IMG/VR virus record: IMGVR_UViG_3300043812_000026
DNA length: 64,000 bases
Strand: one strand, 5' to 3'
Origin: a virus
Taxonomy: Duplodnaviria; Caudoviricetes
Below are positions 1 to 41,938 of the stretch, one piece after another; the first letter of the stretch is position 1; every line of letters starts with the position of its first letter. Made by a program: the position numbers and the translations under genes. The notes beneath the pieces are model-generated. The model worked only from the letters and a program-made list of their open reading frames with translations, was not told the DNA's origin and ran no database searches.

Positions 1-219
1 CCCAGAACCGTCTCCACCCTGTTCTTGCACAATCGAAACAGTATTAGTTAATTTAAAATCTAATTTACCTTGTTTATAATAAACTTTTGTTACCTTAGCT
101 AAAGTAATAAATGAATTATCATTTGTCCCGTTTAAATTCCGAAAGCTAACGTCTCCACCTAGGGAAGATTGCTTTCTAAACGGTTGATTTTGTGAGGGTA
201 TATTGATCTTTTGACCCAC
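1..219 (-). CDS. N-terminus of putative baseplate central spike/tail-tip protein (runs off window)
   Basis: GTG at 219 after RBS GAAAGGGGG; open to base 1 (MGQKINIPSQNQPFRKQSSLGG...ITLAKVTKVYYKQGKLDFK), resembling the N-terminus of Twort-like central spike proteins; not in ORF track. Confidence 0.6.
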   Translation of the reverse strand, partial: MGQKINIPSQNQPFRKQSSLGGDVSFRNLNGTNDNSFITLAKVTKVYYKQGKLDFKLTNTVSIVQEQGGDGSG

Positions 220-305
220 AAAAAATCCCCCTTTCATTATCCTACATTGTATAACAGAATTACTATCTTCTACCGTTTAATGTAGTTCTGAAAGAGGGAA
301 TTATA

Positions 306-1298
306 TTATTTAAGTTTTACATAATCGTCATTATAATTTTTAACAAACCAGTTAATATTAACTTTCTTATTAAATAGCCCAGTAAAGATACCACGGTAAT
401 AATCTTCTGTAGACTTACGAATCTCAATAGTGTTACTCCATATTTCTGCGTGGTCAATATCTTGCTTAAACTGGTTAAATTTCCGATTGTAGTAGAAATA
501 CTTAGGCTTAATCATAATATCAATTTGATGTTCTAAGTATGACTTTTTAAGTTCCTTTTTAATCTTCTTAGCTAAACCCTTTTGGGTATGAGCATGGATA
601 GACTCTAATCTTTCAACAGTACTCTTTAATCGTTCAGACAAGTAATTAGGATATTCTATAGAGTCATCATCATATTGCATACCCCTAAATAAGGTCAAGC
701 ATTGAATTAAATAGTCACGATCTGTCGATAAAGCAGTTAATAAATCATCATACCAAAACTCATTATCATGCCCATTCGCTGATTGAGCAATGATACCTTT
801 TAGATCCCATTTAAAACGTCCATAGTTAGCCATTGGATTAAAGTACTTTAGAACTAAGTCAATATTAATTTCGTCTACTCTGGATAACTGGTTTAAAGAG
901 TTAACGTCTGCATAATAATTTAACTTAACATTATGGTTGGGGATTAAAGACTCAATTACAATATCATTAGGGTAAGGAGACGGAATATTAAATCCTAATC
1001 TCCAGCCATCCGTGTCTACTCCTACATTATTAATTCCAATACTTTCTAAACGCTTTTTAAATTCAGCACCTAGAGCCTCTCTCATTGCCCTTTCATTATC
1101 ATTAAACAAACCACCATCTAAAGCTAGAGAGTCATGGTTAGGGTCATAAAAAGATAAGTCCTTAGTCAAATTACCTACATATAAGAAATTAAAAAGGTCT
1201 GAGATATTATCAAACTTATTCAATAACTTTTTCTTTCGGGATAATTCCTCTTCTACTTTATCTACATTGTCTAAATAGTTCTTAATTACTTTCTCCAT
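306..1298 (-). CDS. hypothetical protein
   Basis: 330 aa ORF directly after 1301..1915; no recognisable motif. Confidence 0.75.
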   Translation of the reverse strand: MEKVIKNYLDNVDKVEEELSRKKKLLNKFDNISDLFNFLYVGNLTKDLSFYDPNHDSLALDGGLFNDNERAMREALGAEFKKRLESIGINNVGVDTDGWRLGFNIPSPYPNDIVIESLIPNHNVKLNYYADVNSLNQLSRVDEINIDLVLKYFNPMANYGRFKWDLKGIIAQSANGHDNEFWYDDLLTALSTDRDYLIQCLTLFRGMQYDDDSIEYPNYLSERLKSTVERLESIHAHTQKGLAKKIKKELKKSYLEHQIDIMIKPKYFYYNRKFNQFKQDIDHAEIWSNTIEIRKSTEDYYRGIFTGLFNKKVNINWFVKNYNDDYVKLK

Positions 1299-1300
1299 AA

Positions 1301-1915
1301 TTACTTAACCTTTCTAGTAGCGTTAATTGCACATACCGGACATTTGTGTTTACTAAGAAAGAAACTGGCTGGGGTAGTCATCCATACAGTATCACACTTC
1401 TTATGCTTAAAAGTAACACGTTGGTGGTATCCTTTATATTCAGATAGAACTTCGAATTCGTCTCCATGTGGTAAGTTATGAACTCGCTCCTTAAATTCCT
1501 CAGTGGTTAAAGATTGCTTCTTAGAACGAACCTTATTAGCACATACAGGACAACGAACAGATCCAACACTAAAGGTATTAGGAAGAGTCTTAAATACAGT
1601 ACCACATTTCTTGTGCTTATAACGAATTGGTGTCCGATTATTTACAAAGTCATCTAAAACCTCATACCCATCATTAGTCATTCCTTTTACATACTCCCTA
1701 TACTCTGCTGGGGTGTAGCGGGGACGACCACTACAGTAAGGACAAGCAGGTCTTTGTAAAAAAGCCAAAGGATAAACATATAGCACATGACCACATTTAT
1801 TATGCTTAATATGAATCTTTACTGTTCCTTTCTCATAATGATCTAAAGCTGTATACTCGTCACCTACTAAATCATGCAATTCTTGTTTAAATTCTTTATC
1901 AGTTTTTCTTCGCAT
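1301..1915 (-). CDS. zinc-ribbon repeat DNA-binding protein (endonuclease-family paralogue lacking the nuclease domain)
   Basis: Three HxxC(G)...CPxC repeats like those of the EDxHD endonucleases here; no IEYDG motif; TTGACA promoter at ~1938-1969. Confidence 0.75.
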   Translation of the reverse strand: MRRKTDKEFKQELHDLVGDEYTALDHYEKGTVKIHIKHNKCGHVLYVYPLAFLQRPACPYCSGRPRYTPAEYREYVKGMTNDGYEVLDDFVNNRTPIRYKHKKCGTVFKTLPNTFSVGSVRCPVCANKVRSKKQSLTTEEFKERVHNLPHGDEFEVLSEYKGYHQRVTFKHKKCDTVWMTTPASFFLSKHKCPVCAINATRKVK

Positions 1916-2036
1916 ACTTCACAACTCCTTTACAACTATTATAATACAATAGAATAGACAGGTTGTCAATACTTAATTACAAAAAAGAAGAATATTCTCC
2001 AACAGTTCCGTTGTTATTCCCCTTTCTTAATCCCTC

Positions 2037-3884
2037 TTAATCTTTATTTAGATGTTTAGTTAACTCAGACTCTTTCCAAATCTTACCAGTTTCCCGGTCT
2101 CGAATTAATCTTTCTTCTGTATCACCTACTGAATAGTGAATGCTATCTTGTTTAGGATAAGGTTCAACATCAAATTTAAGGGTCTTACGGGCTTGTTTCT
2201 TAAATGTTTTTGACCCTAAGAACATAATATAACGATATTTGATAGGACTAATTATCATATACCTATAGTAATGACCTTTTTCCCATACACCACCATGCTT
2301 ACCATATCCATTCCAAGAATATTCACGATGTTTAGTAGTTCCGCAGTATAAGAAATTAGTAGCTTGGTAAATTGCTCCAGTATGGTGCATACCTTGATCG
2401 GCAAAGGAGATAATAAACCAATTACCATCTTGTTCTTGCTTTAATTGTCTTAAAGTCCATGAGACAAACTTAGACGTAATATTCTTTAAATTTTGACTTA
2501 CTTCGTCTTTAATATATAGTCGAGATAGTTCTAAGGTGTTATCTTTATTAGCTAAAGGTGAGATTGACTGAGCAAGGCTAATTCTAGGTCTTGTATATGT
2601 TACCATTCCTGCCAGACTTCCTCGATAATATAAACCATAACAATAAGAAGTAGTAACTTTACGGTGTAAATAATGATACCTAACCATTAACTCGTTAAGA
2701 TCTGTACTCTCTACCTTTCTAAACTCAATGTCACTAAGCTTATCTACTAAAGGTAAAAGATAATAGTCTAATGTGTCCTTAATACTTTCGTCATATCTAA
2801 TTCTAATTAAATTAATACCTTTTTCCTTACAATAATTATCTTTCATTCTATCATGTTTCTTTTGCAATTCATAACGCTCTTTACCCCCAAACAAATCGAC
2901 AGGATTAAAATGTTGTTGGCCATCATATTCAATAGCAGTATTGAATTGAGACAACCAGAAGTCAAAGTGAAGGTTTTTCTTATCTATTAAATCTGGAATT
3001 AAATAACCATAAGAGTAACTAATCCTGTGTGATACTAAATAATTCATAATCGCCTGCTCACCATTAGAAGAACCACAATTAGGACACAATCCCCTATTAG
3101 CACTAAGTTGCCCCCACGTGGTTTTAAACACAGTACCACATACGTTGTGCCTTACATAGATAGGGCTTTGATTGTTCTTATAATTACCACTTACATATGT
3201 ATAACGACCATCAGCAACCCTTGTAATTCGTTGCTTAACTTCGTCTAAGGATAGCCTACATCTGTCACCTGTTGCTTTATTAGCACAAAATTTACAACGA
3301 TAACCATGTATGAAACTATAGTCACGAACCCAATAATCATTTTCGCACTCTTTATGTAGTAAATGTAGCCACAAGCCTTCTTTTTTAGTCCTTTTAGTTC
3401 CTAATAATTCATACTTGCCTTTTCCTAAATCTTTAACCTCTTTAATTACTTTATTGGATGTTTTAGGGGCATTTCCTGCGCAATTGGGGCATCCTTTACC
3501 TTTTAATAAATTAACTGGCAAGGGAGTCCATTCACCTTTTGAACCATATCCACAGACAAGACACTTCGCTTTTGTTTTCTTAAAAATACCATGTATAGGT
3601 TCGAGCAAAATAATATCATCACTTGGGCGAATTTTATGTAGTCTTTTCTTAAACTCCTCGTCTGTTAACATACGACTATTAGATCTTCCCCTCATACTAC
3701 AGTACTTACATTTTGCCTTACCCCTAAAAATATTATCAGGGATTAAAGTACCGGTAGTACCACAGACTAGGTGTTTATATTTAACAGGTGTTTTCATATC
3801 CTTATAGGGAGGATAAAAAACATATTTAGATCCTAGAATACGTTGTGCCCTATAGCTAAATTCATCAAAAGTTAGTTTCTTCAA
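2037..3884 (-). CDS. zinc-ribbon/EDxHD-type endonuclease fused to C-terminal Mom-like (GNAT) DNA-modification domain
   Basis: 4 Zn repeats; HFDFWL..IEYDGQQH..HDRMKD nuclease; then YHYLHR..LELSRL..ISFADQGMHHTGAIYQATNFLYCG typical of the Mu Mom family. Confidence 0.75.
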   Translation of the reverse strand: MKKLTFDEFSYRAQRILGSKYVFYPPYKDMKTPVKYKHLVCGTTGTLIPDNIFRGKAKCKYCSMRGRSNSRMLTDEEFKKRLHKIRPSDDIILLEPIHGIFKKTKAKCLVCGYGSKGEWTPLPVNLLKGKGCPNCAGNAPKTSNKVIKEVKDLGKGKYELLGTKRTKKEGLWLHLLHKECENDYWVRDYSFIHGYRCKFCANKATGDRCRLSLDEVKQRITRVADGRYTYVSGNYKNNQSPIYVRHNVCGTVFKTTWGQLSANRGLCPNCGSSNGEQAIMNYLVSHRISYSYGYLIPDLIDKKNLHFDFWLSQFNTAIEYDGQQHFNPVDLFGGKERYELQKKHDRMKDNYCKEKGINLIRIRYDESIKDTLDYYLLPLVDKLSDIEFRKVESTDLNELMVRYHYLHRKVTTSYCYGLYYRGSLAGMVTYTRPRISLAQSISPLANKDNTLELSRLYIKDEVSQNLKNITSKFVSWTLRQLKQEQDGNWFIISFADQGMHHTGAIYQATNFLYCGTTKHREYSWNGYGKHGGVWEKGHYYRYMIISPIKYRYIMFLGSKTFKKQARKTLKFDVEPYPKQDSIHYSVGDTEERLIRDRETGKIWKESELTKHLNKD

Positions 3885-4048
3885 TATTATTCCTTCTTTC
3901 TTATATGATTATAATTTCAATCAATTTATTGTTCAAGAGTATATTTTATAAAAAGAAATAAAGTGTATTAAAATAACGTATACCATTCTCCAAAGTAGGT
4001 TAAAGTATACGTTATCATTTTTAACTATTTGATTATTAAAACACCATA

Positions 4049-4094
4049 CTACGCTTGGCTTGATGTTCCAGAACTAAGGTACAAAAACTCGATA
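4049..4094 (-). repeat. orphan duplicate 3' end of tail tube gene
   Basis: 21-nt exact repeat (4074-4094 = 4133-4153); reads IEFLYLSSGTSSQA* vs expressed IEFLYLSSSTGSQS*. Confidence 0.85.
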
Positions 4095-4107
4095 TACTAT
4101 ATAATAA

Positions 4108-5044
4108 TTATGACTGTGAGCCAGTCGAAGAGCTAAGGTACAAAAACTCGATAGACTCACTAACTATCTGATTTGCTCTATAACTTGTGTTATATGACGA
4201 TGCACTGCATCCATAGAAAGCCTCGGCTACCATTTTAGTAACACTATCCATTACAGAAATAGTTAAAACGTCAGCTTGTAGAATATCCTCTCCCAGATGG
4301 GCTATATCCATTTGCTGAGAAGCAAGGTTATCTCGTACCATACGAAATCTTTCTAGTGTAAGAGAACCCGTATATTTGAGGTATACATGTTCACGTGGCA
4401 TACATTATATTAACTACTTATTTCTAAATAGATTAGACTATATCTTCCTCTTTATAAGAGGTTCTACATTACCCTAACTTAATAAGGACTTAATCGTTAG
4501 TCTTTTATTTTAGAACGGTTGGTCAACTCTATCCACTTCTGGATTTAGTCTTTCTTACTAGCTTATTTAATTCAGTTATTCAGCTTTACCCGTTTAGTAG
4601 AATTTTTCAATTAACATTACTGTTAACCTCCACTATGCTAGTTAATGGACCCGATTTCATATACCCCTTCGGTGCCGTAACTTCTATTAGCTGTCAAGCT
4701 TTGCGCACGTGCAATTAAATGGTTCTTTGCCATAATATAAATTCGGTTAGAGGTATTACAAAATTTATATTTATATTTTTATATAATTTTAGACTATATC
4801 TTACTCCAGATCTGGAGTCCTCTCTATTACACCCTAAGGCTTTTATATAATGAAAACATTATAAGTTTAGTCGTTAGTCATTTATCTTAGAACGGTTGGT
4901 CAACTCTACCCCTAGTAGATTACAGGGCTTAGTCTTTCTTACTAGCTTATTCTCTTTTATTACTACTATTTATTCAGCTTTACCCGTTTAAGAGAGGTTT
5001 TAAAACAGCTAATACCTAACCGTTTGATTTGCGACAGTCGCCAA
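4108..5044 (-). CDS. tail tube protein in three exons (5044-5019, 4758-4645, 4402-4108), 144 aa spliced
   Basis: Joined exons give MATVANQTVNTSNRIYIMAKNHLIARAQSLTANRSYGTEGVYEIGSIMPREHVYLKYTG..., matching Twort-like tail tube; RBS AAGGAG before TTG; 435 nt in frame. Confidence 0.9.
4403..4644 (-). mobile_element. ORF-less group I intron 2 of tail tube gene (242 nt)
   Basis: Exon ends in U, intron ends in G; P1 UCCAU/GUGGA; P10 GCAUA/UAUGC; AAGAUAUAGUCU element; core shared with the other two introns. Confidence 0.9.
4759..5018 (-). mobile_element. ORF-less group I intron 1 of tail tube gene (260 nt)
   Basis: P1 AAACGGU/GCUGUUU; P10 AGGUAUUA/UAAUACCU; terminal G; AAGAUAUAGUCU element. Confidence 0.9.
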
Positions 5045-5127
5045 TTAATGACAACTCCTTTCTAATTAGAAACAAATAATATTAAGATATATCTTAGTGG
5101 TCATTAATTAATATAGATAGCCATAAC

Positions 5128-5257
5128 AAAAAGAGTACCTACCCGTAAGATAAGTACTCTTTTAATCGACTAATCTAATATAAAGGAGGTAATGTAGAAC
5201 AATTATCGAGTCTCTGCCAGTCAAACTAAATAATTCATTAACATAACCATGACTCTA
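5128..5257 (-). ncRNA. candidate sRNA (promoter-terminator unit without ORF, with anti-SD tract)
   Basis: TGCTATACT at ~5258-5266, UACCUCCUUU inside, terminator AAAAGAGTAC..GTACTCTTTT. Confidence 0.35.
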
Positions 5258-5427
5258 GTATAGCACACAATAATTAAAATACAATAGCTAAGATAAAAAA
5301 AAAAAACAGGGTAAACCCTGCCAAGGAAAAACAAACAAAGAATTCAGATAAAAGTTTGAAACAGTTTCCTTACTGAATTAAGGAACATTCTTAGTATAGA
5401 ACATAGACCCCTAGTTGTCAACCTTTA

Positions 5428-5961
5428 TTAAAGATTATCTACATTATCTAAAGTTCTGTCTTTATCAAGATAAACAATCCTAGGGCTAATTGATATATCA
5501 GATACCCCAGATGGTAAGTCTTTCAACTTTCTAACAAAATCCTCAGCATCTTCTCTATAAGCAAAAACATCAGAACTAGTATAGGAACCATAGTCATCGT
5601 TATAGGTGTACTCAACAATGAAAACAACCGGACGATTAAAACAATTTACCCGCAGATGTCTACGAGGATCATCTTTATCTAAATCAGTACCTATGCGCTG
5701 TTGTAAACTCATCACCTTCTCCTTGTACTGATCAAAAAATTTTTCACTTTTTCGATCAATACTTGAAAAAGCGTTCCACAGCTTACTTATCTCATTTTTT
5801 ATTGAAGCTATATCATCAGAAGATTGTTTCTCAGGTAATTTAACCTTTTGAGGTTCCAACTCAACCTTAGGTTCTCGATTTATAGCAATCAAGCCTATAA
5901 TAACAGTAATAGAAATGCCAATAAGAATACCAATAACCAAGCTATATCCATTAATAACCAT
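5428..5961 (-). CDS. hypothetical membrane-anchored protein
   Basis: N-terminal hydrophobic helix followed by coiled-coil-like region. Confidence 0.75.
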   Translation of the reverse strand: MVINGYSLVIGILIGISITVIIGLIAINREPKVELEPQKVKLPEKQSSDDIASIKNEISKLWNAFSSIDRKSEKFFDQYKEKVMSLQQRIGTDLDKDDPRRHLRVNCFNRPVVFIVEYTYNDDYGSYTSSDVFAYREDAEDFVRKLKDLPSGVSDISISPRIVYLDKDRTLDNVDNL

Positions 5962-5989
5962 TAATCTTCTCCTTTATTTTAAGATATTC

Positions 5990-6523
5990 TTAATCCTTTA
6001 CTTTATTCTTTGCGTCAATCTCAGCTTGCTTCTGATCATTCTCAGCCTGTGCTTGTTTCTTAGCATTCTGAGCTTCTTGTGCTTTCTTAGCCAATTCATC
6101 ATTAATTGGTCCATTAAAAGTAGCTAAATAAGTAGCTTTATCCTTTAGATAAGCATTAACGTCAAAATCAAGATAGCTAGACATCATTGAAATAAAAGTA
6201 TCTGTTAATGAGCCTAAGTCTTCACCCTTAATAAGATCCTTATTATAAATATCACGGGTAGTATAATAAAGCAGAGAACTAACCTTATTTAACCCCCAAT
6301 TAAGTGAATCTTCAATTGATACAGCCTTATTCCCTAAAGTACCATCAGCCATATTAGCTAGGGTGTTAAAATTCTTTAACTGGTCTGCTGTATAAAGATC
6401 TTTACTAAGAAAAGGAACTTCAGCCAGCATAGCCGTTTCAGAATAAATCTTCGCATTATCAAAAGCAGAAGTACCAATTGATTTTACATAATTACCAGTC
6501 TTTGTATTATAAAGTGCATACAT
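5990..6523 (-). CDS. hypothetical protein
   Basis: 177 aa ORF in operon. Confidence 0.75.
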   Translation of the reverse strand: MYALYNTKTGNYVKSIGTSAFDNAKIYSETAMLAEVPFLSKDLYTADQLKNFNTLANMADGTLGNKAVSIEDSLNWGLNKVSSLLYYTTRDIYNKDLIKGEDLGSLTDTFISMMSSYLDFDVNAYLKDKATYLATFNGPINDELAKKAQEAQNAKKQAQAENDQKQAEIDAKNKVKD

Positions 6524-6525
6524 AA

Positions 6526-7017
6526 TTATTTACCATCCTTAAAAATACTTTCGTCTACATATACTATCAATTCACCATCTTCGGTATAAGAGTTTTTAAT
6601 CTTAATTCCATGAGATTCTAAATCTTTTAAAACTAATTCAGCTTGTTCCAAAATAAGCTTATCAGGAATACCTCCCCATAAAATGGTATCTTTATACCCG
6701 GGAATCAATCCACTACCTGAAAAAGATGCCACACCCTCGTAATTATAGGGAATGTACCATTCAGATATATTAAAATCCTCATAGATGTATTTTAAGATTA
6801 AATTATAAACCATATTATAAGCTAAATACGTAAGATACTTTTGATGATTAGCGTATACATCTTTTAAATAATCTAAACTAACCAATTCACTTGAATTATG
6901 AGCAGGTAAATCAGATAAAGCTTGTCGTAAAGAAGATAAATCGGCTTGGTCTAATTCAAACTTATTAGTAGGAGTATCAACCTCTAAGATATGATCTTTC
7001 CTGTTATATTTAATCAT
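6526..7017 (-). CDS. hypothetical protein
   Basis: 163 aa ORF with RBS GAGGT. Confidence 0.75.
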   Translation of the reverse strand: MIKYNRKDHILEVDTPTNKFELDQADLSSLRQALSDLPAHNSSELVSLDYLKDVYANHQKYLTYLAYNMVYNLILKYIYEDFNISEWYIPYNYEGVASFSGSGLIPGYKDTILWGGIPDKLILEQAELVLKDLESHGIKIKNSYTEDGELIVYVDESIFKDGK

Positions 7018-7194
7018 TTTAGTCTACCTCACTTTAATTAATCCCAATTCATATACTTTTCCACCACATTCATTAGCAACTGCACAAGCTTCTAAATAAT
7101 TATTAAACACACAAATTTGTCCGAATTTAAGAATATCAAATGCAGGCTTGTTGGGTAATCTTTACGTCCCCAACACCTTTTGGTTTTTGATTAC

Positions 7195-7707
7195 TCATGA
7201 CAGTTTCCTCCCACAAAACATACAATAACTAGAGTCAATATCCTGTACCTCTTCGGGTTCAATAGTATCACCCCGATAAACGATCAACCTTATAAGACCA
7301 CCATCAGCCTTATACCTCATATAAGAACCTTCGTCAATTTCTATCTTTTTACCTTCTCCATTAATCATAGAGCAATAAGGACAATTATAATGATTATCTA
7401 ACTTAGAAACAGCCTTAACAGTATCAACTAAACATTGTAAATAACTATAGTATGAGTCAAAAGAAGTATCTAAGTTCAAGATATAATCTTCACCGTGTCG
7501 CTCAGGCGGATATACATAAGGACGATAAACAATTTTTGTTTCATCATCAGATTTAATACTATAAGCCTCATTCTCTACAGAATCAATGATAATCTCCCAA
7601 CCCAATTCTTGCAATTGCTGAAACTTAATCAACGTTTTCTTAATCGTTTCTGGATCATACTTCTTATTAATATCTTCTACTAAATCAGATGTACTACCTT
7701 TCTTCAT
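7195..7707 (-). CDS. hypothetical protein with C-terminal CPYC..CMFCG zinc ribbon
   Basis: Start moved to ATG 7707 after RBS AAGGAAAGGAAG; C-terminus resembles 42040..42318. Confidence 0.7.
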   Translation of the reverse strand: MKKGSTSDLVEDINKKYDPETIKKTLIKFQQLQELGWEIIIDSVENEAYSIKSDDETKIVYRPYVYPPERHGEDYILNLDTSFDSYYSYLQCLVDTVKAVSKLDNHYNCPYCSMINGEGKKIEIDEGSYMRYKADGGLIRLIVYRGDTIEPEEVQDIDSSYCMFCGRKLS

Positions 7708-7714
7708 TGTTATG

Positions 7715-7778
7715 CTTCCTTTCCTTAATTCATGTTTTAAGTATAACACTTTTAGTTGAATTTTCAACTACTTTTGTA
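7715..7778 (-). promoter_or_regulatory. promoter/operator/RBS cassette copy 1
   Basis: 62/64 identical to 27925-27988; TTGAAA..TATACT with palindrome TAGTTGAA-TT-TTCAACTA over the -35. Confidence 0.75.
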
Positions 7779-7849
7779 CAAAAAGTACAAAAATAAAAAA
7801 GAAATAGAGAATCTAATTCCTCTATTTCTTAGTAAAAATCAATCCAACT

Positions 7850-7930
7850 TTACTTCTTTTTTGGCTTATAAAATTTTATTGACCCACCTTTAGCAAAAGC
7901 CATTCCATAGGTATCTTCATTAACATCTAC
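7850..7930 (-). pseudogene. orphan alternative 3' end of hub/tail lysin gene
   Basis: Reads VDVNEDTYGMAFAKGGSIKFYKPKKK*, aligning to expressed end NIAEEPYSQGFGTDTATWWGRPKK*. Confidence 0.55.
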
Positions 7931-8859
7931 TTTAATAACTTCAATTGATCGTCTAAAAATAATTTCACCTTTTTATAAGTATTATAAGTATAAGGTATCC
8001 TAATTAGCTTAATACCACGCTTCTTACAATATAAATTTTTACGCTTATCCCGTTCTTTTCTTACTTCTAAGGCTTCATACTGATCGAAGAAATCAATCTC
8101 CTCATAGTGTTGTCTACCATCGTATTCAATAGCTATTTTTTGTTCCGGTAGCCAAAAATCTAAGTGTAGTTTATTTGGTAAAATATATCCATATTCATAC
8201 TTAAAACCAAGTTTACTCAAGTAAGCATTAATCATAAATTCACCATTGCTCATATTACAGTATTTACAATAAGGGGAATGTAGTAACTTACGAGGTTGTT
8301 TAGTTATAATATGATTGCAAGGAATATGCAGTACATCAACAGGAGTAGACCGATCCTTATAGATTCCCATAACTTTAAATTGTCCGGGATATGTATCATC
8401 TAGCTCTTTTTGGAATTGTTCCTTATCTTTCCTTTCCTTGTCAGCAACGACTTTTCGAGCACATTTATTACACCCATGCCCTGCTAGTAAACTATATCCC
8501 CTTACCCAAAACTCATGATTACATACTAAACATTGAACATGAACTAAGCCTGCTACAGTTGTAAATTGGCTTAAAACTTTATATCTACCAATACCAAAAA
8601 CCTTATTAACAGCCTCTATAAATGAATCTTGATTATAACGAATATGATGAGAACACTGAGGACACCTAGAATGCTTCTTACTCTTACGCAGAAAATCGTG
8701 TGGGGTAGTTGTATCCCATTCATAGTTACATACATTATGACGAAGTGTAATAGGAGTGCGCTCATTCTTATATTCACCTAGAACAGTATACTCATCACCA
8801 ACAAGATCATAAACCTCTTGTTTAAATTCAGCCGTAGTCTTTCTACGCAATATAATCAC
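7927..8859 (-). CDS. free-standing zinc-ribbon/EDxHD-type homing endonuclease
   Basis: 3 Zn repeats + LHLDFWLP..IEYDGRQH..D..K..IKLIRIPY. Confidence 0.8.
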   Translation of the reverse strand: MIILRRKTTAEFKQEVYDLVGDEYTVLGEYKNERTPITLRHNVCNYEWDTTTPHDFLRKSKKHSRCPQCSHHIRYNQDSFIEAVNKVFGIGRYKVLSQFTTVAGLVHVQCLVCNHEFWVRGYSLLAGHGCNKCARKVVADKERKDKEQFQKELDDTYPGQFKVMGIYKDRSTPVDVLHIPCNHIITKQPRKLLHSPYCKYCNMSNGEFMINAYLSKLGFKYEYGYILPNKLHLDFWLPEQKIAIEYDGRQHYEEIDFFDQYEALEVRKERDKRKNLYCKKRGIKLIRIPYTYNTYKKVKLFLDDQLKLLK

Positions 8860-8881
8860 CTCATAATGATTATATCACTTA

Positions 8882-11800
8882 CTATTTCTTAGGCCTACCC
8901 CACCAAGTAGCAGTATCAGTACCGAAACCTTGTGAGTAAGGTTCTTCTGCAATATTTTCTCCAGCATTCATATCAATAACTTTAGTATCTCCACCGTGCC
9001 AATCTTCTTCAAGAATACCCATGTGAGGGTTAGCATCATTAACTACCATATCCCCAGCTTTTGCGTCTTTTGAGTCAATAGGCTCCAAAATAGATTTACA
9101 TGAAAACGTAGTAAATGGTGTATCACCAACCGAATAACCGCATGATTTAGCACAATACCAACTAAAAGAACTACAATCTGCATGACCATTTTCCTTCGGA
9201 CTACCGATAGACCCAAAGTCTGACCTATTAGGTTGCGAATAAGTCCAACCCTTTGTTTTAACCTGTTGAGCAAACTTAACTATATCGTTATTAGATGTTC
9301 CTCCACTATCTCCTCCACTATCTTTACTTGCATTGGAAATAGCAGTAGCAAGATTTTGCTCACCAAAGTAACCCCCAAGAAAACGGGTAAACTTGCCCTT
9401 AAAACTCCAAGGTTCAGTAAATCTACGGTAAAAGTCGCCTGTTTCAGATCTTAAAGGAACACCACGAGTAACATTCAATGTAACCTGTAAACCATTAGCA
9501 TAACTCCAGCTAGTAGTTACACCCTCACAGTAAAATTCCCACCAGACACCAGAAGGGTCATCATAAAACATTACCCGCTCACCAATCCAATCTACCATTG
9601 GTGTAGAAAGCGATCCTAAAGTAATCGTGCCAGAATAGAACTTAGCATTATCTGCGTACCAATCAAATAACTTCTGTGTATACCTAAGGAATAAGAAAGG
9701 TACAGATTGTTGACCACTATCTGGTGATCCATTAATACCATCATGTCCTTGGTCAAAAGGAACTGAATTCATAATCCGGTCATAATCAGCCTCACTAGGC
9801 TTACCGCCATTAGCTAAAGCGGACTGCACAATCTCCCAAGCTTGTTCTGGTCCAATTGTATAACCCATTTCGTCAATCAACTCACCAGCCGCTTTTTCAG
9901 GGTTTTTAGCCATCCGGTCATAACTCTTTAAGTATTTAGAATTCTTAGAGATAGCTGTATTAGTAGGGGTGTAATTGGGCATCATAACACTAAGGTAGCT
10001 AGTACGATTAAAATGATTACGCATCGTCCATAATGTATTAGCGTCTTCTTGACTAATTCCCAAGCCAGCAACCGAACGGGCAAAATCATAAGCATTCCCA
10101 GAAGCTTTAATCGCTTCATTTACAGCATTATACTGAGCAGACCCACCAGCTTCTTTAGGAATAGAAATATCTTCACCATTAGCCTTACGTCCACTTGTGT
10201 AATAAAAAGCGTCAACTACAGATGTGTAATAAGGGGCGTGGAGCATTGCTTCTTCTTGAGTCCAGCCTTTCATAGCTTCACTATCTGCATTGGTAGTTCC
10301 TGCTTGTAACTGTGACAACGGATCCTCTTGTTTATTACCATTAAAGTAATCAACTTGTACATTCATTAACTTATAACCATAACGGTGAATAAGATCTAAA
10401 TTAGTTAAGGGTGCCATATTCCCTGTAAATCCACCGTCATACTGATCTATCCCCATACCTTGTGTAGGCGTAAGCTTAAAAATCGAAGCTTGTTCTTGAT
10501 CATTGTTTTGGATATTAACACTCATAATATCACCGGGAGCAATCTCATTAACAGGTAAGCCCATCCAGTTTTCGGGATCGAACGGTGTAGGACGATAATT
10601 AAAAGTAGCCAATCCCCGATCGTGCGTCCAATACATTTCATTAAAAGGTTTAGCAGAAACGTCTTTAATAAACTGGAGAATAGAACCATTGTAATTTAAG
10701 AATGGATTGCTTGGGCCTGCGTCTGGGTAGGACTCATCTAAGTTTTCATAAATATAGAACTCCATTAAATTCTGGATAGGTAATTCCCCATCTTCTGATA
10801 CCTGCATAGGAATATTTAACCAACTAACTTGATTATTAGTTTCCGGATCATTATTCTTCCCATTCTGGTCTGTATCTGAATTCTGGTCTGAACCATCAGC
10901 AGTATTGCCGTCCTTATCAGGTAAAGAATCAAGATAAGCTTGATAGTCAGCTTGTGTCATTGGTTGTCCCATAAAGTCATTAACTACGCCTGCTTTAACC
11001 GGAGTAGCCCGCTCAGTAATATCTCGACCACCTTGACCATTTAAGTAATCATAGGTATTTACTCCACCTTGATTTTGTAAGACAAACCGATTGATAATCT
11101 GCTTAATAATATTAGCAGACGTATGTTGCTTAAAACCAATCCCTGTCTTTTCATCATCTGGGAGCAGTTGATAACCATTAAGGTTAGACTGTAAATCAGA
11201 AAAAGTAGACAACTGAATATTACTCATAATCTTAGCCATACCTTGACCTACAACCGTATAAGTTTCTTGCGCTCCATTGTAATTAGCATTACGAGTTAAA
11301 TTAGAAACTAAACCAGTATAAATACACTTATCAAATTGACGATACTGTTTGTCTGGTAAGATATAATCTACCCGAATTAAGTCATTAACAGCAAACAGTG
11401 AAGACCAGTCATGACTATTACCTAAAATCATAGTCAAGGTTGGAATATCATTTTGCATATCGTTTTGTACTTGAACTGAAATTAAATCAGCAATTAATTT
11501 ATCTTGTGTGTCATCTGGAATTTGATGAGATACAGAACGGGGAACTAAAGGATAAGTACGTGAAATAGTTGCTACCGTTACCTGTAAATAACCAGACGTT
11601 GAAATAGAACCATATTTAGCTATATCACCCGGCTTATGGTCTATATGCGTAGGATAACGAGGAGTAGGCTTTTGTATTAAATTCAAGGACTCCTGCATTA
11701 TTTGTTTATAGTTTTCATCAGCCTTTGAAATATCTCTATCGTCCCCGCCTTTAGAAGAACCAGACTTATGACCTTTATTCTTATAAGCGTCTGATACTCC

Positions 11801-28031: not shown

Positions 28032-29540
28032 TTAACTAATTAAATAAGTAACTAGAGGTTGATAAGCAGATTTATAATGCTCAACTATATCCTTAGGACT
28101 AGGAATATCAATTGTATGACCTTTAACTTCTCTACGGTTAACGTCAATTGCCTTATGAATAGAAGAACGACTAGCCCCTACAATTTCTCGAACTTTAGTC
28201 ATTCCCTCTACCCAGTTACCATCAACAATAAAGTCATGATTATACTTAGGACTCTTCCTAGCTTTTTCTACCAATTCCTTAGCAAGTTCTGAGGTGTAAT
28301 CATCTGGTCTACAAAAGACAAAACCACCAAGAGAGCCTTTCTTATCCTCTAAGCAATGCTTAATATTACGTTCACCTACACCTAAAGTTTCTGCACAGGA
28401 GCGAATAGATAAAAAAGAAAATACTTGATTAGTTTTAGTGCTGATTGCATAAACGGGAGCGGTATTACCATTTTTATATTTAGTCATGACTGACTTGCTA
28501 ATATTAGAGCCATAGTGTGTATTATATTTAGCTGTACACCATTCTAAATTAGTAACTTTATTATTCTTCTTATTTTCATCCTTATGATTAACATACGGTA
28601 AGTTATGAGGATTAGGCAAAAATAATTGGGCTACTAGTCTATGGATAGAAAATCTACCTATCACTCCATCTACACTTAATGATACATATGAATAAGCATT
28701 CTTACCGTCTGTAAATGGAATCAAAATACGATCACTAATTGTAGAATAAATCCTACCATAGTTTGAAACTTTATAATCATGAAATTCTTTCCAAACTTCT
28801 TTAAAATCATTATCACCATTCCAATCATAGTTGGGAAAAGCTTTAAGTAATTCAGTCTCTGTATAAACCTTATTCTCTTGGCGATCACGGATTAATCTTT
28901 CTTCTGTATCACCTACTGAATAGTGAACGTTATCTTGTTTAGGATAAGGTTCTATCTCAAATTTAAGGGTCTTTCGAGCTTGCTTCTTAAAAGTCTTTGA
29001 ACCTAAGAACATAATGTAACGATACTTAATTGAACGTAAGATAAAGAAACGGTAATGATGTCCCTTAACCCATTTACCACCTTTCTTATCTGGTCCGTTA
29101 TAACAAAAAATACCAGAATCTGTCGTTCCACAGTATAAAAAGTTAGTAGCTTGATAAATTGATCCTGTATGGTGCATTCCTTGATCAGCAAAAGAGATAA
29201 TAAACCAATTACCATCTTGTTCTTGCTTTAACTGTCTTAAAGTCCATGAGACAAACTTAGAAGTAATGTTCTTTAAGTTTTGAGAAACCTCGTCTTTTAT
29301 GTACAATCGGGATAGTTCTAGGGTGTTATCTTTATTAGCTAGAGGTGAGATTGAAGAAGCTAGGGACTTACGTACATGAGTATAAGTAACCATTCCTACT
29401 AATTGATTTTGGTAGTACATTCCATAAGCATACTTACAAGCTACTACTCGGTGTAAATAATGATACTTAATCATTAATCCATGCAGGTCTAAAGGATTAA
29501 CTTTCTTGAATTCAATTTGTTCTTTATTTATCTTTGTCAT
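28032..29540 (-). CDS. Mom-like (GNAT) DNA-modification domain fused to NUMOD4-HNH homing endonuclease
   Basis: N-terminal ~230 aa nearly identical to the Mom-like domain of 2037..3884; then EVWK..YKVSNYGRI, HRLVA..VNHKDENKKNN..NLEWCT..N. Confidence 0.8.
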   Translation of the reverse strand: MTKINKEQIEFKKVNPLDLHGLMIKYHYLHRVVACKYAYGMYYQNQLVGMVTYTHVRKSLASSISPLANKDNTLELSRLYIKDEVSQNLKNITSKFVSWTLRQLKQEQDGNWFIISFADQGMHHTGSIYQATNFLYCGTTDSGIFCYNGPDKKGGKWVKGHHYRFFILRSIKYRYIMFLGSKTFKKQARKTLKFEIEPYPKQDNVHYSVGDTEERLIRDRQENKVYTETELLKAFPNYDWNGDNDFKEVWKEFHDYKVSNYGRIYSTISDRILIPFTDGKNAYSYVSLSVDGVIGRFSIHRLVAQLFLPNPHNLPYVNHKDENKKNNKVTNLEWCTAKYNTHYGSNISKSVMTKYKNGNTAPVYAISTKTNQVFSFLSIRSCAETLGVGERNIKHCLEDKKGSLGGFVFCRPDDYTSELAKELVEKARKSPKYNHDFIVDGNWVEGMTKVREIVGASRSSIHKAIDVNRREVKGHTIDIPSPKDIVEHYKSAYQPLVTYLIS

Positions 29541-30673
29541 AGTTTTAAACCACCTTTTGTTAAACTTTCCTTTATATCCTTATAATTATCACAAGTATAA
29601 GGGATCTCAATTAAGTTATACCCGTTAGCTTTTGCATAGTCACGCTTTAATTTATCATGATACTGCTGTTTCTTAAATTGTTCTTTTCCACCAAAATGAT
29701 CAATAGGCTCATAGTGTTGCAATCCTTGGTATTCAATTAGTACCCTCTGATCATCTACACAAAAGTCATAATGCAAAGGAAAACCACCAACGCCTAATAA
29801 GTCACTAAACTTCTTAGGATGCTCATAAGATATAGTACTATCATTTAAAATATTATTAATTATAAGTTCTCCATGCGGGGTATTGCACATAGGGCAACCA
29901 CCTTTTTTAGATAGCATCCAATTAGGCTTTGTTCCCCAAACATATCCACACCTATGTTTGAGCATTATTTTCTTTTTTGCTCCACGATAAGGACTGACTA
30001 CTGTATAAACTCCTCTTCCATATATTTCATTCAATTCTCTTTGAAATTCCTTAGTAGTCTTTTTAGGGGTCTTAAAGCAATAAGGACATCTCTGCCCTCT
30101 CATTATATTCATAGGTCTAACTGTATAAGTATGATGACAAATATTGTGTCTAACTAATATAGGTGTATGAGAATTAACATACTCCCCTAAAACAGTATAG
30201 TCATTTCCATATATTTTACTAATCCTATCCTTAAACTCGTCTGTAGTTAATCTTACATTATGTGCACAATATTTACAACGACTACCATTTAGAAAGGAGT
30301 TTGGTTTCATTTGTAATACATGACCACAAACCTTATGTTTAATCAAAATAGGTGTTTGAGAATTAACATAAGGTTCTAATACAGAGTATTCGTCACCAAC
30401 TAAATATTTAACACGTTTTATAAACTCATCATTAGACATACACCTCTTATTTGCTACTTCTTTCCTACGACACTTAGGGCATCTACGACCATTTAAAAAG
30501 CTATCGGGAACAACTCTATACACATTACCACAAACATTATGACGTACTAATAACTTAGTTCTATTATTCTTATAAGGCTCAAGAAAAGTATAATCATCAC
30601 CTACTAATTCTTTAACCTGTTTAACAAATTCTTCATTAGTTTTTCTTCTAGTCATTAATATCAACTCCTTCAT
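29537..30673 (-). CDS. free-standing zinc-ribbon/EDxHD-type endonuclease
   Basis: 4 Zn repeats + LHYDF..IEYQGLQH..HDKLK; ATGA overlap with the Mom-HNH gene. Confidence 0.8.
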   Translation of the reverse strand: MKELILMTRRKTNEEFVKQVKELVGDDYTFLEPYKNNRTKLLVRHNVCGNVYRVVPDSFLNGRRCPKCRRKEVANKRCMSNDEFIKRVKYLVGDEYSVLEPYVNSQTPILIKHKVCGHVLQMKPNSFLNGSRCKYCAHNVRLTTDEFKDRISKIYGNDYTVLGEYVNSHTPILVRHNICHHTYTVRPMNIMRGQRCPYCFKTPKKTTKEFQRELNEIYGRGVYTVVSPYRGAKKKIMLKHRCGYVWGTKPNWMLSKKGGCPMCNTPHGELIINNILNDSTISYEHPKKFSDLLGVGGFPLHYDFCVDDQRVLIEYQGLQHYEPIDHFGGKEQFKKQQYHDKLKRDYAKANGYNLIEIPYTCDNYKDIKESLTKGGLKL

Positions 30674-36121: not shown

Positions 36122-39100
36122 TTAGAACTCCGTTTCGTTCTTAATCTCATATTCACGTTGTATATCAGTCTGTTCTGGGGTAAAGATGTCATTATCAAGA
36201 TAATCAATCTGTGTAGACTTTCTACGCTTCATAGCGTCCTCTTTCATTAACTTATCAAGCCCCACCATTGCATAAACACTTGCTTGTGCTGAATGATCAC
36301 CATCTTTACGAGTAATAATTTGAACTTGTTGTATAGTGTGGGTTTGCTTATCTTCTCTATCATCAGTACGGATAATAATATTCTTCCAATGAGTAATAAA
36401 TAACTTAATCATTGGGTCATTTTGAGATCCTTGGTAGAAATGAATATCACCCCGTCTCAAATTACCCATCATAATTTCATTTTGTGCTAACTTATCAATT
36501 AAAACAGAATTATCAGAGTCATTAAAATGAGCTACAAAATCCCCCTTAGAAAGAGCAGAATTTACTCGTACCCCATAAACACGTTGAATTCCATAATAAG
36601 CCATTAATTTTTGATTATAGGAACCAGAATCAACTTAGAAATACATTTCTGTACACAACCTAAGCTAGATTATATCTTAATGATACAAAATAGTATCATC
36701 ACTACTATTGTTAATTATCTTAACTATATATGTCTTAATATCCTTATAAGTATTAATTCTATAAGGTATTCTAATAAGTTTTATACCTGCTTTCTCACAA
36801 AAAGAGTCCTTAATTTTATCATGTATTATACCAGTTTTACTATAAAATAAACTTTTATTTTTATAGTGTTGAACACCATCATACTCAATACATAAATTGT
36901 AATCAGGTAAATAAAAGTCAAAAGGTAGCATCCGTTTATCTATACAGCCACTAAAAGTTTTTTGATAATCATACTTAATTCCTAAGGATTCTAATATCTC
37001 TAATATTAGAACTTCACCTCTTGAACTGTTATGACAAAAGTAACAACCTATATGCTTATCAACTATCTGTCTAAGAGATAAATATATAATATGATTACAC
37101 TTTTTATGCTTTATTCTCATTTTAGTATGATCATCTTTATAATTATCTATTCTTATATACGTATTTCCAAGAATATCAAGTATTAGTTGATCTACCTTTT
37201 TATTATCATATGTTTTATGTATCTTTCTTAGATACCTAGCACACTTAGGACATCTTCTACCTTGTATAAATTTTGTAATATTTACTCTATAAGTAAATTT
37301 TCCTCCATCTATACAATGATTATGAGTAATTACAATTTTATGCTTAGTGTCTATTTGTTCAGAATCTATTGTATATTCATCACCAACTAACTTTTGAACC
37401 TTCTGTCTATAGTATTGAGAACCCTTCATACGTCCCTGCCCCTGTCTTCTATGACCACATCTGGGACAACCACAGGAAGAGTTTAATAACTGGTTAGGAG
37501 TAACCTCCCACTCCCCTTTAGAACCATAGTTACAAACTAAACACTGATGTTTTATTTTTACTAAGATACCTTTATAGCTCTCCAGAGGAATAATACTAGG
37601 TTTCTTTTGTTTTAATTCTGAAATATATTGCTTATTAGTACGTTTTGCCAAAGTTTACTTTCACCTCACTTATAGTATAGCAAAGTATAAGTATTCTGAG
37701 GCAAATATAATAGTAAATAATTAAAGCTTAATCGTTAGTCATTTAATTTAGAACGGTTGGTCAACTCTATCCCTAATTACTAGGATTTAGTCTTTCTTAC
37801 TAGCTTATTCTTTATTGTAATTATTATTTAGCTTTACCCGTTTAAGTAGTTTATTTTTCTAAATATTACTATTTAGTGGAGCTATCTGTTAACCCCGAGT
37901 CTGGAAGAATTAAGTCTGGTTGATAAAGATTTAAGTGTCTAACAACTAAATTAAGATCTTCTTCAATATGTTCAACACCTGTAGACTTAGGTACACGGTA
38001 TATATCCATTAAATCAATCCTACCATTAGGACGCATACCTAAAGTAACAATATGATGATAATGTTGTCCCCAGTCAATACCAGAAACCACATACTTATAA
38101 TTATCACGATTATCTGGATGTTTATAATTATTATCTATATGGTAAAGTACATCTTCTTCTCTAAAAGTTGTACCAGAGTCTTGATAAGGCATTCCAAGAT
38201 TGTAATTATAAAAATACTGTTTCGAAGGGCTTCGTAGTTCCTCTTGCTTTAAATGGTCTGCCGTAATCCACGTAGCATTCATTTGTGAAATACTAAAGCC
38301 AGTACGTCTTCCCTTACCCGGCTTCATAGCTACCCATCTACCATTATACCATCTATCAATTGGACGTTTGCATTTTTGGCATACGAACTGAAAAGTACCC
38401 GGTTGAACAACTTTACCTATAGTATCAATACCATCTTTATGGACCTGCTTAATATTTTTATTATAATCCATAACTTGTTCGTAACCACAATGTTGACACT
38501 TATGTACCCAATACCGTTGATCAGACTCCATAAACAATTTGTGAATCCCATACCCTTCAGTTGTTGGGGTAGACCAACGTCTTAAGAGTTTATACTTTGA
38601 AGACTCCATAGACTGAATAGCTGATTGTTCTGCTAAAGGTGATATGCGATCGTACTCATCAAGAGCCGTCACATCAATGTGTAGACCCTCTAGGGAAGCC
38701 CCATTAGAAGCAGTTCTGAATGTTAATTCACTATCCCTAATTTTCATACCCTTCATAGTCATCGTTTTAGGGTCTTTTATTAAAGATCTATAATAACCAT
38801 TTTCAAATTCTGGTCTAATACGTTGTTTATAAAACGTGTCCAACTGACGATACGTAGGAAAGGCATATAAACCAGAAGCACGATCATATGAATGTGTGTC
38901 TAGCCAATAAATCATCATCTCTATACCGACTTCGCTTAGTCCCAGTTGTCGACTTTTTATCACACAAATATCTTGATCATTAGCACTGTTGACTATACCT
39001 ACCTGCCAAGGACGATGACCTAAAGCGTGGGTTGTATCGTAATCTGGTACATTAAAAGTTAATGGCTTACCATTTATCGTATGGTGTTGAAGTAAATAGT

Positions 39101-40479: not shown

Positions 40480-41938
40480 CCTGCTATATAAAATGTGAAC
40501 AAACATAATCCTATATGCTAAGTAATTATGTTTGAGAAAGAAATATAGCTTTTCCTTTCTTTATTTTATTTACTGTCGTCAACGCTGGTATTCTCATATC
40601 CTAACTAGAGGGTAATGGCATTGACCAACTATTACAGCTTAAGGGCTTAGCCAGCCCCAATTATATTTTTTTCTTCTTTACGCTAAAGCCAAAAGATTTA
40701 AGACTGCATTTTGGTCTCGATCCATTACCACACCGCATTCATAACAAATATATTCATTGTGTTTAGTACCATGTTTTTGATTACCATCGAGACCAATTTT
40801 ATCTTTGCCTTGCTTGATGTGACCACATGCAGAACAGCGTTGTGTTGATGGATAGAATTGATCAGCTAAGATTAATTCTTTACCATACCATTCACACTTA
40901 TAGGTTAATATTTGTCTAAAATAACCAAACAGTGATCTCTGCATACCTTTAGAAGCTACATGAGTCATCTGCATCTGTTTGACTGCTAAATCTTCAATGA
41001 CAGTCTGGTCATAACTATCAACCAGCTTAGTCGTAAACTTCTGCAAAAGATCATGTTGGATATTAACTACTTTACGATAATCACGTTGCAACTTGGCTCT
41101 CGTTTTAACGTAATTATTACTTTGTGTAGCTAACTTACCATTAACCTTTCTCTTACGAGCTAGCATTTTTTGATAATGCCTGATCCGCTTATAAAGCTTT
41201 TGCAATTTAGCAGGTAAGACGTTAAGCTTCCCATCAGTATAGTTAAAGTGACCTACATTTAGATCTACTGCCGTCTTATTACCAGTTTTAGGTTTCTTAG
41301 CTATTTCAACTTCAAAAGGTAGGCTAGCCCAGTATTTACCATTTTCACGATAAATTGAAACAACTTTTAAATCACCATCTAAAGCCTTAGCACCTTTAAA
41401 ACTAATATCATACCAAGTTTTAACTCTGTGTGGTTTATCAAGTCTTAACTTACCATTAACAATCTTAGCTCTATCAGTTTTAAATCCTTGTCTAGGAGCT
41501 TTCTTAGATTTAAATCTAGGCTTTCCCCAATCAGGTAATGCTTTATTAAAGAACTTCTTCCAAGCATTACCTAAATCAGAAATTGCTAAGTATAAACACC
41601 GTGACGATAAACTATATTGCCAGTCAGCTTTATTAGAGGATAACTCCTTACGGACTCTGCTTTCATTAGGGATAGGATTGTCTTTCTTGTTCAAGTTATG
41701 AGCTTCATACATATCATTCCACAGCTCTAACCCTTGATTCCAACAATATCTACGATAATCGCATAGATCATCAAGAACTTTCTTCATTGTTTGGTTGGGA
41801 TAGAGTCTTACCTTTTGAACTCGAATCATTATTTTCACCACCTTGCATTGACATAATATCTACCTCACATTTTATCTTTCTGTAGATATTATATCATAGG
41901 TGATCGTATTTTAATATCCTTTAATTAACAGTTAATCA
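40480..41938 (-). mobile_element. TnpB-only IS607-like element (no tnpA)
   Basis: GGTGAT at both junctions (40476-40481, 41935-41940); structured ~200 nt 3' region ending TATAGCAGG. Confidence 0.6.
40678..41841 (-). CDS. tnpB: RNA-guided endonuclease TnpB
   Basis: RLYPN HTH; RuvC AVDLN, VIEDL, DRDQNA; CSACG/CYECG zinc finger. Confidence 0.9.
   Translation of the reverse strand: MVKIMIRVQKVRLYPNQTMKKVLDDLCDYRRYCWNQGLELWNDMYEAHNLNKKDNPIPNESRVRKELSSNKADWQYSLSSRCLYLAISDLGNAWKKFFNKALPDWGKPRFKSKKAPRQGFKTDRAKIVNGKLRLDKPHRVKTWYDISFKGAKALDGDLKVVSIYRENGKYWASLPFEVEIAKKPKTGNKTAVDLNVGHFNYTDGKLNVLPAKLQKLYKRIRHYQKMLARKRKVNGKLATQSNNYVKTRAKLQRDYRKVVNIQHDLLQKFTTKLVDSYDQTVIEDLAVKQMQMTHVASKGMQRSLFGYFRQILTYKCEWYGKELILADQFYPSTQRCSACGHIKQGKDKIGLDGNQKHGTKHNEYICYECGVVMDRDQNAVLNLLALA

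Follow-up and report, generated by a model that had tools for sequence, protein, structure and literature searches.

Here we describe a gene that joins an endonuclease of predicted homing type to a Mom-family DNA-modification domain in phage DNA from the IMG/VR record IMGVR_UViG_3300043812_000026 (Caudoviricetes); the whole stretch analysed, 64,000 nucleotides (nt), is called the window below. The gene (2037..3884, minus strand) is a single uninterrupted open reading frame (ORF) encoding a protein of 615 amino acids (aa; P0001), with a TTG start and a TAA stop at 2037..2039. Its expression signals and domains are arranged as follows:

3885..3936, minus strand: expression signals recognised by consensus matches, namely a promoter-like TTGAAC-17-TATAAT (3936..3908) and a ribosome-binding site (RBS), GAAAGAAGGA (3900..3891)
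3069..3884, minus strand: four Zn-ribbon/treble-clef repeats (residues 1-272 of the 615-aa fusion)
2745..3068, minus strand: Vsr-like/EDxHD nuclease domain (residues 273-380)
2040..2729, minus strand: Mom-family GNAT domain with a 37-aa tail (residues 386-615; Pfam span 386-578)

The RBS, rated strong, lies 6 nt 5' of the TTG start, and both it and the promoter-like site are kept in all three fusion-carrying relatives. No internal start that could give a separate Mom protein was found ahead of Met400, and none is present in frame at the nuclease/Mom junction, which makes this a true translational fusion. A preliminary description of the window had proposed one ORF joining Zn-ribbon repeats, an EDxHD/Vsr-like nuclease and a Mom-like GNAT domain. 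Sequence and fold comparisons bear this architecture out, and the motifs that it quoted (LELSRL, ISFAD and H.G.IYQATNF.Y.G) are all found in the ORF.

The N-terminal repeats are ~60 aa each (at about 4-63, 73-136, 143-202 and 212-272) and carry the H..C...C..C pattern four times. This part of the protein is covered by the PHROG 559 and 681 'endonuclease' profiles, paralogs match Pfam DUF4379 and CapR, and the repeats are presumed to form the DNA-binding array of the endonuclease. The adjoining nuclease domain (residues ~273-380) contains the motifs LHFDF, IEYDGQQH and KHD..K and is matched by PHROG 9084, 7140 and 3339 ('homing / intron-encoded endonuclease'). The AlphaFold model of residues 229-385 (predicted local distance difference test, pLDDT, 88) has I-Bth0305I as its best fold match (3r3p_A; Z 11.0, root-mean-square deviation 2.6, 92/97 residues), followed by Vsr (1cw0, Z 10.2) and Neisseria NGO0050 (Z 10.0), and Foldseek assigns the Vsr-like fold a probability of 1.00. 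HMMER searches against PDB sequences, run with the single protein and with a 20-sequence nuclease profile, retrieved neither I-Bth0305I nor Vsr; only the fold comparison did.

The composite EDxHD motif is present (E319, D321, H325 and H344-D345, plus D308 and K348). The alignment places the conserved positions of the nuclease at E276, D308, E319, D321, Q324, H325, H344, D345 and K348, with the correspondence to D196, H213 and D222 of I-Bth0305I resting on motif and fold; E276, D308, E319, Q324, H325, D345 and K348 are kept in 35/35 fused relatives. IEYQG replaces IEYDG in 11 of these 35 proteins. I-Bth0305I is the prototype of the EDxHD family, in which the Hef-type phage endonucleases have also been placed and whose members have to act in pairs to make double-strand cuts (Taylor et al. 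2011, PMC3239194). Sequence relatives of the nuclease include the intron-encoded 'Hef-like' endonucleases of AR9/PBS1. The fusion resembles I-Bth0305I (3R3P), Hef of phage U5 and the AR9/PBS1 gp145-type enzymes in its Vsr-like fold with conserved E, D, H and D, in the order of N-terminal DNA-binding modules and C-terminal nuclease, and in being encoded by a free-standing gene that has a promoter to itself and adjoins a conserved virion gene. I-Bth0305I differs in having NUMOD/HTH (helix-turn-helix) motifs instead of Zn-ribbon repeats and no GNAT domain.

The C-terminal half is identified as a member of the Mom family by several comparisons. Pfam Mom (PF25680) matches residues 386-578 over profile positions 2-202 of 202 (E 1.3e-30; 107 bits, cut-off 27.1), PHROG 1384 matches with E 7.8e-42, and Mom of phage Mu (8bv8) was retrieved by sequence search (E 1.2e-9) at ~21% identity. 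The preliminary description had suggested comparing residues ~385-615 with Mu Mom by structure, and the outcome was positive: with the model of this half (pLDDT 93), Foldseek ranked 8bv8 first (E 8.6e-12; TM score 0.63-0.73), the next GNAT in the list following five orders of magnitude behind (E 1.9e-6).

Mu Mom forms a tight dimer with a DNA-binding cleft and moves glycine from Gly-tRNA(Gly) onto the N6 position of adenine in double-stranded DNA, with H58, Y59, R111, S124, D149, R151 and Y159 as important residues (Silva et al. 2026, PMC13219725). The equivalents in the fusion are H404/Y405 (H58/Y59), R455 (R111), S471 (S124, an assignment that requires a one-residue shift of the phmmer gap), D496 (D149) and Y506 (Y159). 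The counterparts of H58/Y59, R111, S124, D149 and Y159 are invariant in 58 members of the Mom clade, fused or not, and H404, Y405, R408, E452, R455, S471, S493, D496, H501, G503 and Y506 are kept in 36/36 fused relatives. The fusion thus shares with Mu Mom (8BV8; Silva et al. 2026, Nat Commun 17:4787; Karambelkar et al. 2020) the Pfam family, the top fold match and the key residues, whereas the Mu protein is the stand-alone product of a tightly regulated late gene of a temperate phage and has no attached nuclease. Between its YQATNF and KYRYI motifs the fusion has 38 inserted residues, against ~49 in Mu, where this region includes a ~35-residue HTH-like insertion. We considered this shortening as a sign of dependence on borrowed DNA-binding domains and rejected the idea because stand-alone members, many of which have a similarly short insertion, are no different. 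Since all 35-36 fused proteins keep the conserved residues of both domains, both halves of the fusion are under selection, and both look active.

The preliminary description knew of no described example of such a fusion. Mom domains fused to restriction-fold nucleases were, however, reported in jumbo phages by Iyer et al. (2021, Viruses 13:63, PMC7824862), who proposed that momylation shields phage DNA and the nuclease attacks host or superinfecting DNA. A 538-aa ORF of phage PA5oct is collinear with residues 238-463 of the fusion (last Zn ribbon, nuclease and start of the GNAT domain; E 1e-6), and its alignment therefore runs across the nuclease-GNAT junction. The gene described here is a further member of a design already described computationally. 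It has in common with the jumbo-phage fusions the order of Zn ribbon, Vsr-like nuclease and Mom-like GNAT domain and the occurrence in several copies per genome. It differs in coming from a Herelleviridae-like phage of lactobacilli of ~150 kb, not a jumbo phage, and in its Pfam Mom score, 107 bits against 21.9 bits in the PA5oct ORF; the earlier work predicted such fusions computationally and did not analyse loci or populations. The PHROG 559 profile (607 positions, 'HNH endonuclease') aligns as far as residue 518 of the fusion, deep in the Mom domain, so phage databases probably include fused members already, misleadingly named. Lactococcus AM1 gp155 and Bacillus AR9 gp145, whose matches appear to extend to residue ~452-456, were considered as fused relatives and rejected, having no Pfam Mom domain. 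Hef-like endonucleases of Dickeya phage LIMEstone1 were likewise considered as Mom carriers and were not confirmed: six-frame searches of that genome with PF25680 and with P0001 gave no match, and Mom goes unmentioned in the LIMEstone paper.

The fusion gene lies in a locus that varies between related phages. By its tail tube gene, the nearest isolate is the Lactobacillus fermentum phage LfeInf (Herelleviridae; 77% identity), and the phage is Herelleviridae-like, of the L. fermentum LfeInf type. A complete relative genome measures 152.7 kb. Among isolate phages, megablast of window positions 1-9000 gave no match, tblastn with a 330-aa neighbour protein gave none either, and no record spans at least 80% of the fusion protein. 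The neighbours of the fusion gene are the following:

4108..5044, minus strand: Phi812-type tail tube gene in three exons (about 5044-5018, 4760-4644 and 4401-4111), recognised by PHROG 985, by Pfam Phi812_tail_tube in relatives and by tblastn with the L020 gene
3973..4015, minus strand: 11-bp hairpin with a 21-nt loop, then a T run, between the tail tube and fusion genes
1301..1915, minus strand: 204-aa gene of three Zn-ribbon repeats only, directly downstream of the fusion, with its own strong promoter (TTGACA-17-TATTAT) and AAGGAG

The tail tube gene adjoins the fusion gene on its upstream side and is likely to be the homing target region. Its two intervening sequences of ~250 nt share a 138-nt repeat (5004-4867 and 4610-4490; 70-76% alike). 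The gene is intact in L020 (144 aa) and has a single interruption in L013, L018, L021 and L022. No group I intron was found in it by Rfam at gathering thresholds. The hairpin at 3973..4015 is likely the terminator of the tail tube gene; its pairing, read by eye, is retained in L011, L014 and L021 despite changes on both arms (A-T to G-C). Just past the real stop, positions 4052-4093 (minus strand) hold a 14-codon copy of the tail tube 3' end (IEFLYLSSGTSSQA followed by a stop), part of a ~51-nt tandem duplication. This copy is missing in L011, L013 and L014, and it is closer to the L020 C-terminus than the working copy is; as a candidate cassette boundary it was rejected, being private to the window.

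The 204-aa gene at 1301..1915 is a nuclease-less member of the endonuclease family of the fusion, 82-98% conserved in L011, L013 and L021, and its product may be a domesticated DNA-binding remnant. It persists even where a different endonuclease fills the adjoining site.

Comparison of the same locus across relatives revealed several alternative occupants. Behind the tail tube gene, the 615-aa fusion is present with its frame intact at 92-95% identity in L011, L013 and L014. In L017 (contig of ENA ERZ8899206, 1205-5261) a 684-aa fusion is followed by a 229-aa stand-alone Mom, 67% identical to the Mom of the window, an 80-aa ORF and a Dam-type N6-adenine methyltransferase, a group of genes with the look of a small island for DNA modification at this locus. 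L020 and L022 carry nucleases of the same clade (60-62% identity) at this place without any Mom, and in L021 a different 455-aa endonuclease (43%) lies between the same flanking genes, with a 162-aa ORF without Pfam match (5371-5859) in the place held by Mom in the window. Upstream of the tail tube gene, L028 has a stand-alone Mom followed by an endonuclease, and L030 an endonuclease alone. A strictly empty allele of the exact site was not found; the LfeInf tail tube gene has no adjoining endonuclease or Mom, but the next gene there is on the opposite strand. Counts of Mom domains taken from the relatives' records were two in G002 (a complete genome), one in G003 and none in G004 and LfeInf.

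The endonuclease family itself is abundant in this DNA. The 64 kb of the window contain five full copies of the Zn-ribbon + EDxHD gene and one nuclease-less copy, and three of the five have no Mom nearby; at least five such genes are present in 42 kb of G001. Besides the fusion, the full copies and a second Mom-containing cassette are:

7927-8859 (310 aa), 36677-37651 (324 aa) and 39226-40185 (319 aa), minus strand: full Zn-ribbon + EDxHD endonuclease genes, 27-35% identical to the N-terminal part of the fusion
29537..30673, minus strand: second cassette, part 1, a 378-aa Zn-ribbon + EDxHD endonuclease behind the major head gene
28032..29540, minus strand: second cassette, part 2, a 502-aa protein of Mom + NUMOD4 + HNH + I-HmuI-like HTH, with a start that overlaps the preceding stop (ATGA)

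The 378-aa endonuclease shares no more than 31% identity with the nuclease part of the fusion and reads IEYQG, not IEYDG, so that a metal-binding Asp may be missing. The Mom domain behind it is 76% identical to that of the fusion in protein and 78% in nucleotides, with a central DNA stretch near 90-95%. Two nucleases thus flank one Mom domain in this cassette; in G001 the HNH part is deleted, leaving a 405-aa Mom-HTH protein, and in G002 the entire unit is one 801-aa open frame. Elsewhere in the window, an Rfam Transposase-1 RNA (RF03014, 62 bits) lies at 40579-40637 (minus strand) beside a 387-aa ORF (40678..41841).

In metagenomes, ~35 protein clusters with the order Zn-ribbon, nuclease, Mom were found, at 39-95% identity. 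Mom domains of the clade of the fusion also occur as stand-alone proteins (P0058, P0060-66; G003) or with HTH or NUMOD4-HNH tails. Fused, split, tailed and stand-alone forms are interspersed in the Mom-domain tree, fused forms are mixed with forms lacking Mom in the nuclease tree, and each of the two trees forces at least 4-5 architecture changes on well-supported branches. Mom domains of the clade to which the second cassette belongs share 94-98% identity, yet they are preceded by nuclease cores from several lineages that are 37-65% identical. The junction of a triple fusion, P0018, retains the start of a separate Mom gene (...EAMTKIDQEQ...). A wider survey of fusions covered the best 150 representatives of ~1,500 Mom-family clusters: among these 150, proteins are mostly stand-alone and of 200-260 aa, and architectures seen among the longer proteins include NUMOD4-HNH-Mom, Mom-GIY-YIG-HTH, ParB_N-Mom, YunG-Mom and Mom-RNase T. 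To judge by these architectures, Mom genes generally tend to associate with homing-endonuclease modules.

With moderate confidence, we read the fusion gene as a mobile, free-standing, Hef-like EDxHD homing endonuclease that carries a Mom anti-restriction module, its halves being separable and the link between them evolutionary, not that of a matched nuclease/antidote pair. The gene behaves as a mobile one would, in its patchy presence, the alternative occupants of one site, its multiple copies and the conserved genes alongside, and the L013 fusion protein shows 92% identity, against 64-83% for the flanking genes. That the modules are separable, swap partners and are patchily distributed speaks against an obligate pair of nuclease and antidote matched in specificity, and fits a mobile endonuclease carrying, or repeatedly landing beside, an anti-restriction gene. 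The preliminary description had put forward a restriction-modification-like unit and, as its alternative, a modification gene hitchhiking on a homing enzyme; its domain calls were right, the fusion was not undescribed, and the hitchhiking alternative fits the comparative data better than an obligately matched pair.

On this preferred reading, the gene and its promoter occupy a hot spot for homing endonucleases, next to a tail tube gene split by introns. When two phages infect one cell, the nuclease and its Zn-ribbon array would cut a related, cassette-free phage genome near the tail tube gene, and recombinational repair would then copy in the whole fusion gene, as family membership and the polymorphism of the locus suggest. 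The Mom half, from its conserved catalytic residues and the precedent of Mu Mom, would momylate the phage DNA and shield it from host restriction, and so may be a useful passenger that keeps the selfish gene from decay. Co-transfer of an anti-defence gene with a mobility gene would then be what links the halves, and the translational fusion could arise easily from the ATGA stop/start overlap of neighbouring genes, to be made and undone repeatedly. An analogy is offered by SegB of T-even phages, a homing endonuclease that amplifies adjacent anti-defence genes to the benefit of the phage (Chihara et al. 2026, PMC13096335). Both cases combine a free-standing homing endonuclease with a counter-defence neighbour, and here duplicated Mom copies lie beside endonucleases (twice in the window, in tandem in L017). 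Unlike the fusion, SegB is a GIY-YIG enzyme, its cargo is unfused and consists of tRNA or other genes, and amplification is known for SegB alone.

Several observations weigh against this account. The nucleotide profile gives the cassette only a modest excess of identity over its flanks. Mom is fused to three unrelated classes of endonuclease, EDxHD, HNH (P0096, P0037) and GIY-YIG (P0165), and every Mom gene seen in the phage group adjoins, or is fused to, an endonuclease gene (two in the window, G001, two in G002, two in L017, L028); on these sequence comparisons, the association is too regular for chance adjacency. The nuclease-then-GNAT order recurs in the distant Pseudomonas phage PA5oct and could reflect a biochemical partnership. 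Within the Mom half, R151, essential in Mu, aligns with Gly498 at a position that varies between G and S across the family, and an invariant His501 stands where Mu has R154; with these positions unlike Mu, the donor or target specificity may differ. Cleavage, base modification and homing are, for this gene, predictions from sequence and models.

The foremost alternative is a cut-and-protect function within a single chain, which we regard as a serious but improbable candidate. The Mom half would mark adenines of the carrier, possibly at the site bound by the Zn ribbons, and the nuclease would cut unmodified DNA of the host or of a co-infecting phage, in the manner of a restriction-modification system or of an epigenetically immune homing endonuclease. 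A function of this kind has been proposed for jumbo phages (PMC7824862). It would agree with the nuclease-Mom association across three endonuclease classes and distant phages and with the retention of conserved catalytic residues of both halves in all fused members. In addition, insertion of a free-standing homing endonuclease leaves its target undisrupted, so self-immunity would be needed, and a Mom domain tethered to the same DNA-binding array would match the nuclease site without co-evolution. Yet this genome has Mom-less nucleases of the family, as does the corresponding locus in relatives; Mom proteins of the clade exist without a nuclease; Mom domains that are nearly identical stand behind very different nucleases; and the tether is lost in the split forms. 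In L017 the fusion is followed directly by a second, stand-alone Mom and a Dam methylase, which looks like an anti-restriction island. A nuclease and a modifier that always co-occur and share specificity, as in restriction-modification, were not found. In a stricter form, which we consider doubtful, Mom would provide epigenetic self-immunity: held by the Zn-ribbon array, it would place the glycine-derived adduct on an adenine inside the recognition site of the enzyme itself, so that carriers would be spared and naive genomes cut. If true, the protein would be a single-polypeptide, long-site 'restriction-modification gene drive', and the independent joining of Mom to EDxHD, HNH and GIY-YIG endonucleases would be explained.

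It is unlikely, in our estimate, that the Mom-like half is not protective at all and instead serves the endonuclease, as a dimerisation or DNA/tRNA-binding module, or acylates another substrate. The tight dimer and DNA-binding cleft of Mu Mom and the need of EDxHD enzymes to pair for double-strand cuts would suit such a role, as would the lack of conservation at the position of Mu R151, the absence, on reading the sequence, of a Trp matching the Mu dimer residue W48 ten residues ahead of the HY motif, and an HTH-like insertion ~12 residues shorter than in Mu. However, the short insertion is common to stand-alone members, and a mere scaffold would not need the equivalents of the Mu catalytic residues that are invariant in the 58 clade members. 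That the gene is a decaying selfish element, with its nuclease already inactive and the fusion a neutral frameshift relic between neighbouring genes, is very improbable: homing endonuclease genes do commonly degenerate once fixed, a nuclease-less Zn-ribbon gene adjoins at 1301..1915 and fusions form trivially at ATGA overlaps, but the conserved nuclease residues are intact in the fusion and in 35 fused relatives spanning 37-95% identity, three other phages keep the 615-aa frame uninterrupted at 92-95% identity, and the gene has its own promoter-like site and a strong RBS.

The Gly-tRNA-dependent mechanism of Mom, a puzzle until recently, was worked out in 2026, solely for Mu Mom, which is a stand-alone enzyme. 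Nuclease-Mom fusions are widespread in phage metagenomes and labelled just 'HNH endonuclease'. At a single locus, members of this phage group provide a series of natural alleles: an endonuclease by itself, an endonuclease fused to Mom, the fusion accompanied by another Mom and a Dam methylase, a different endonuclease, and nothing. This series makes a widespread gene design experimentally approachable, which is the main interest of the fusion locus, and with it the question of whether Mom is a passenger or confers self-immunity becomes experimentally tractable. Either answer would inform how selfish nucleases and anti-restriction genes spread jointly between phages.

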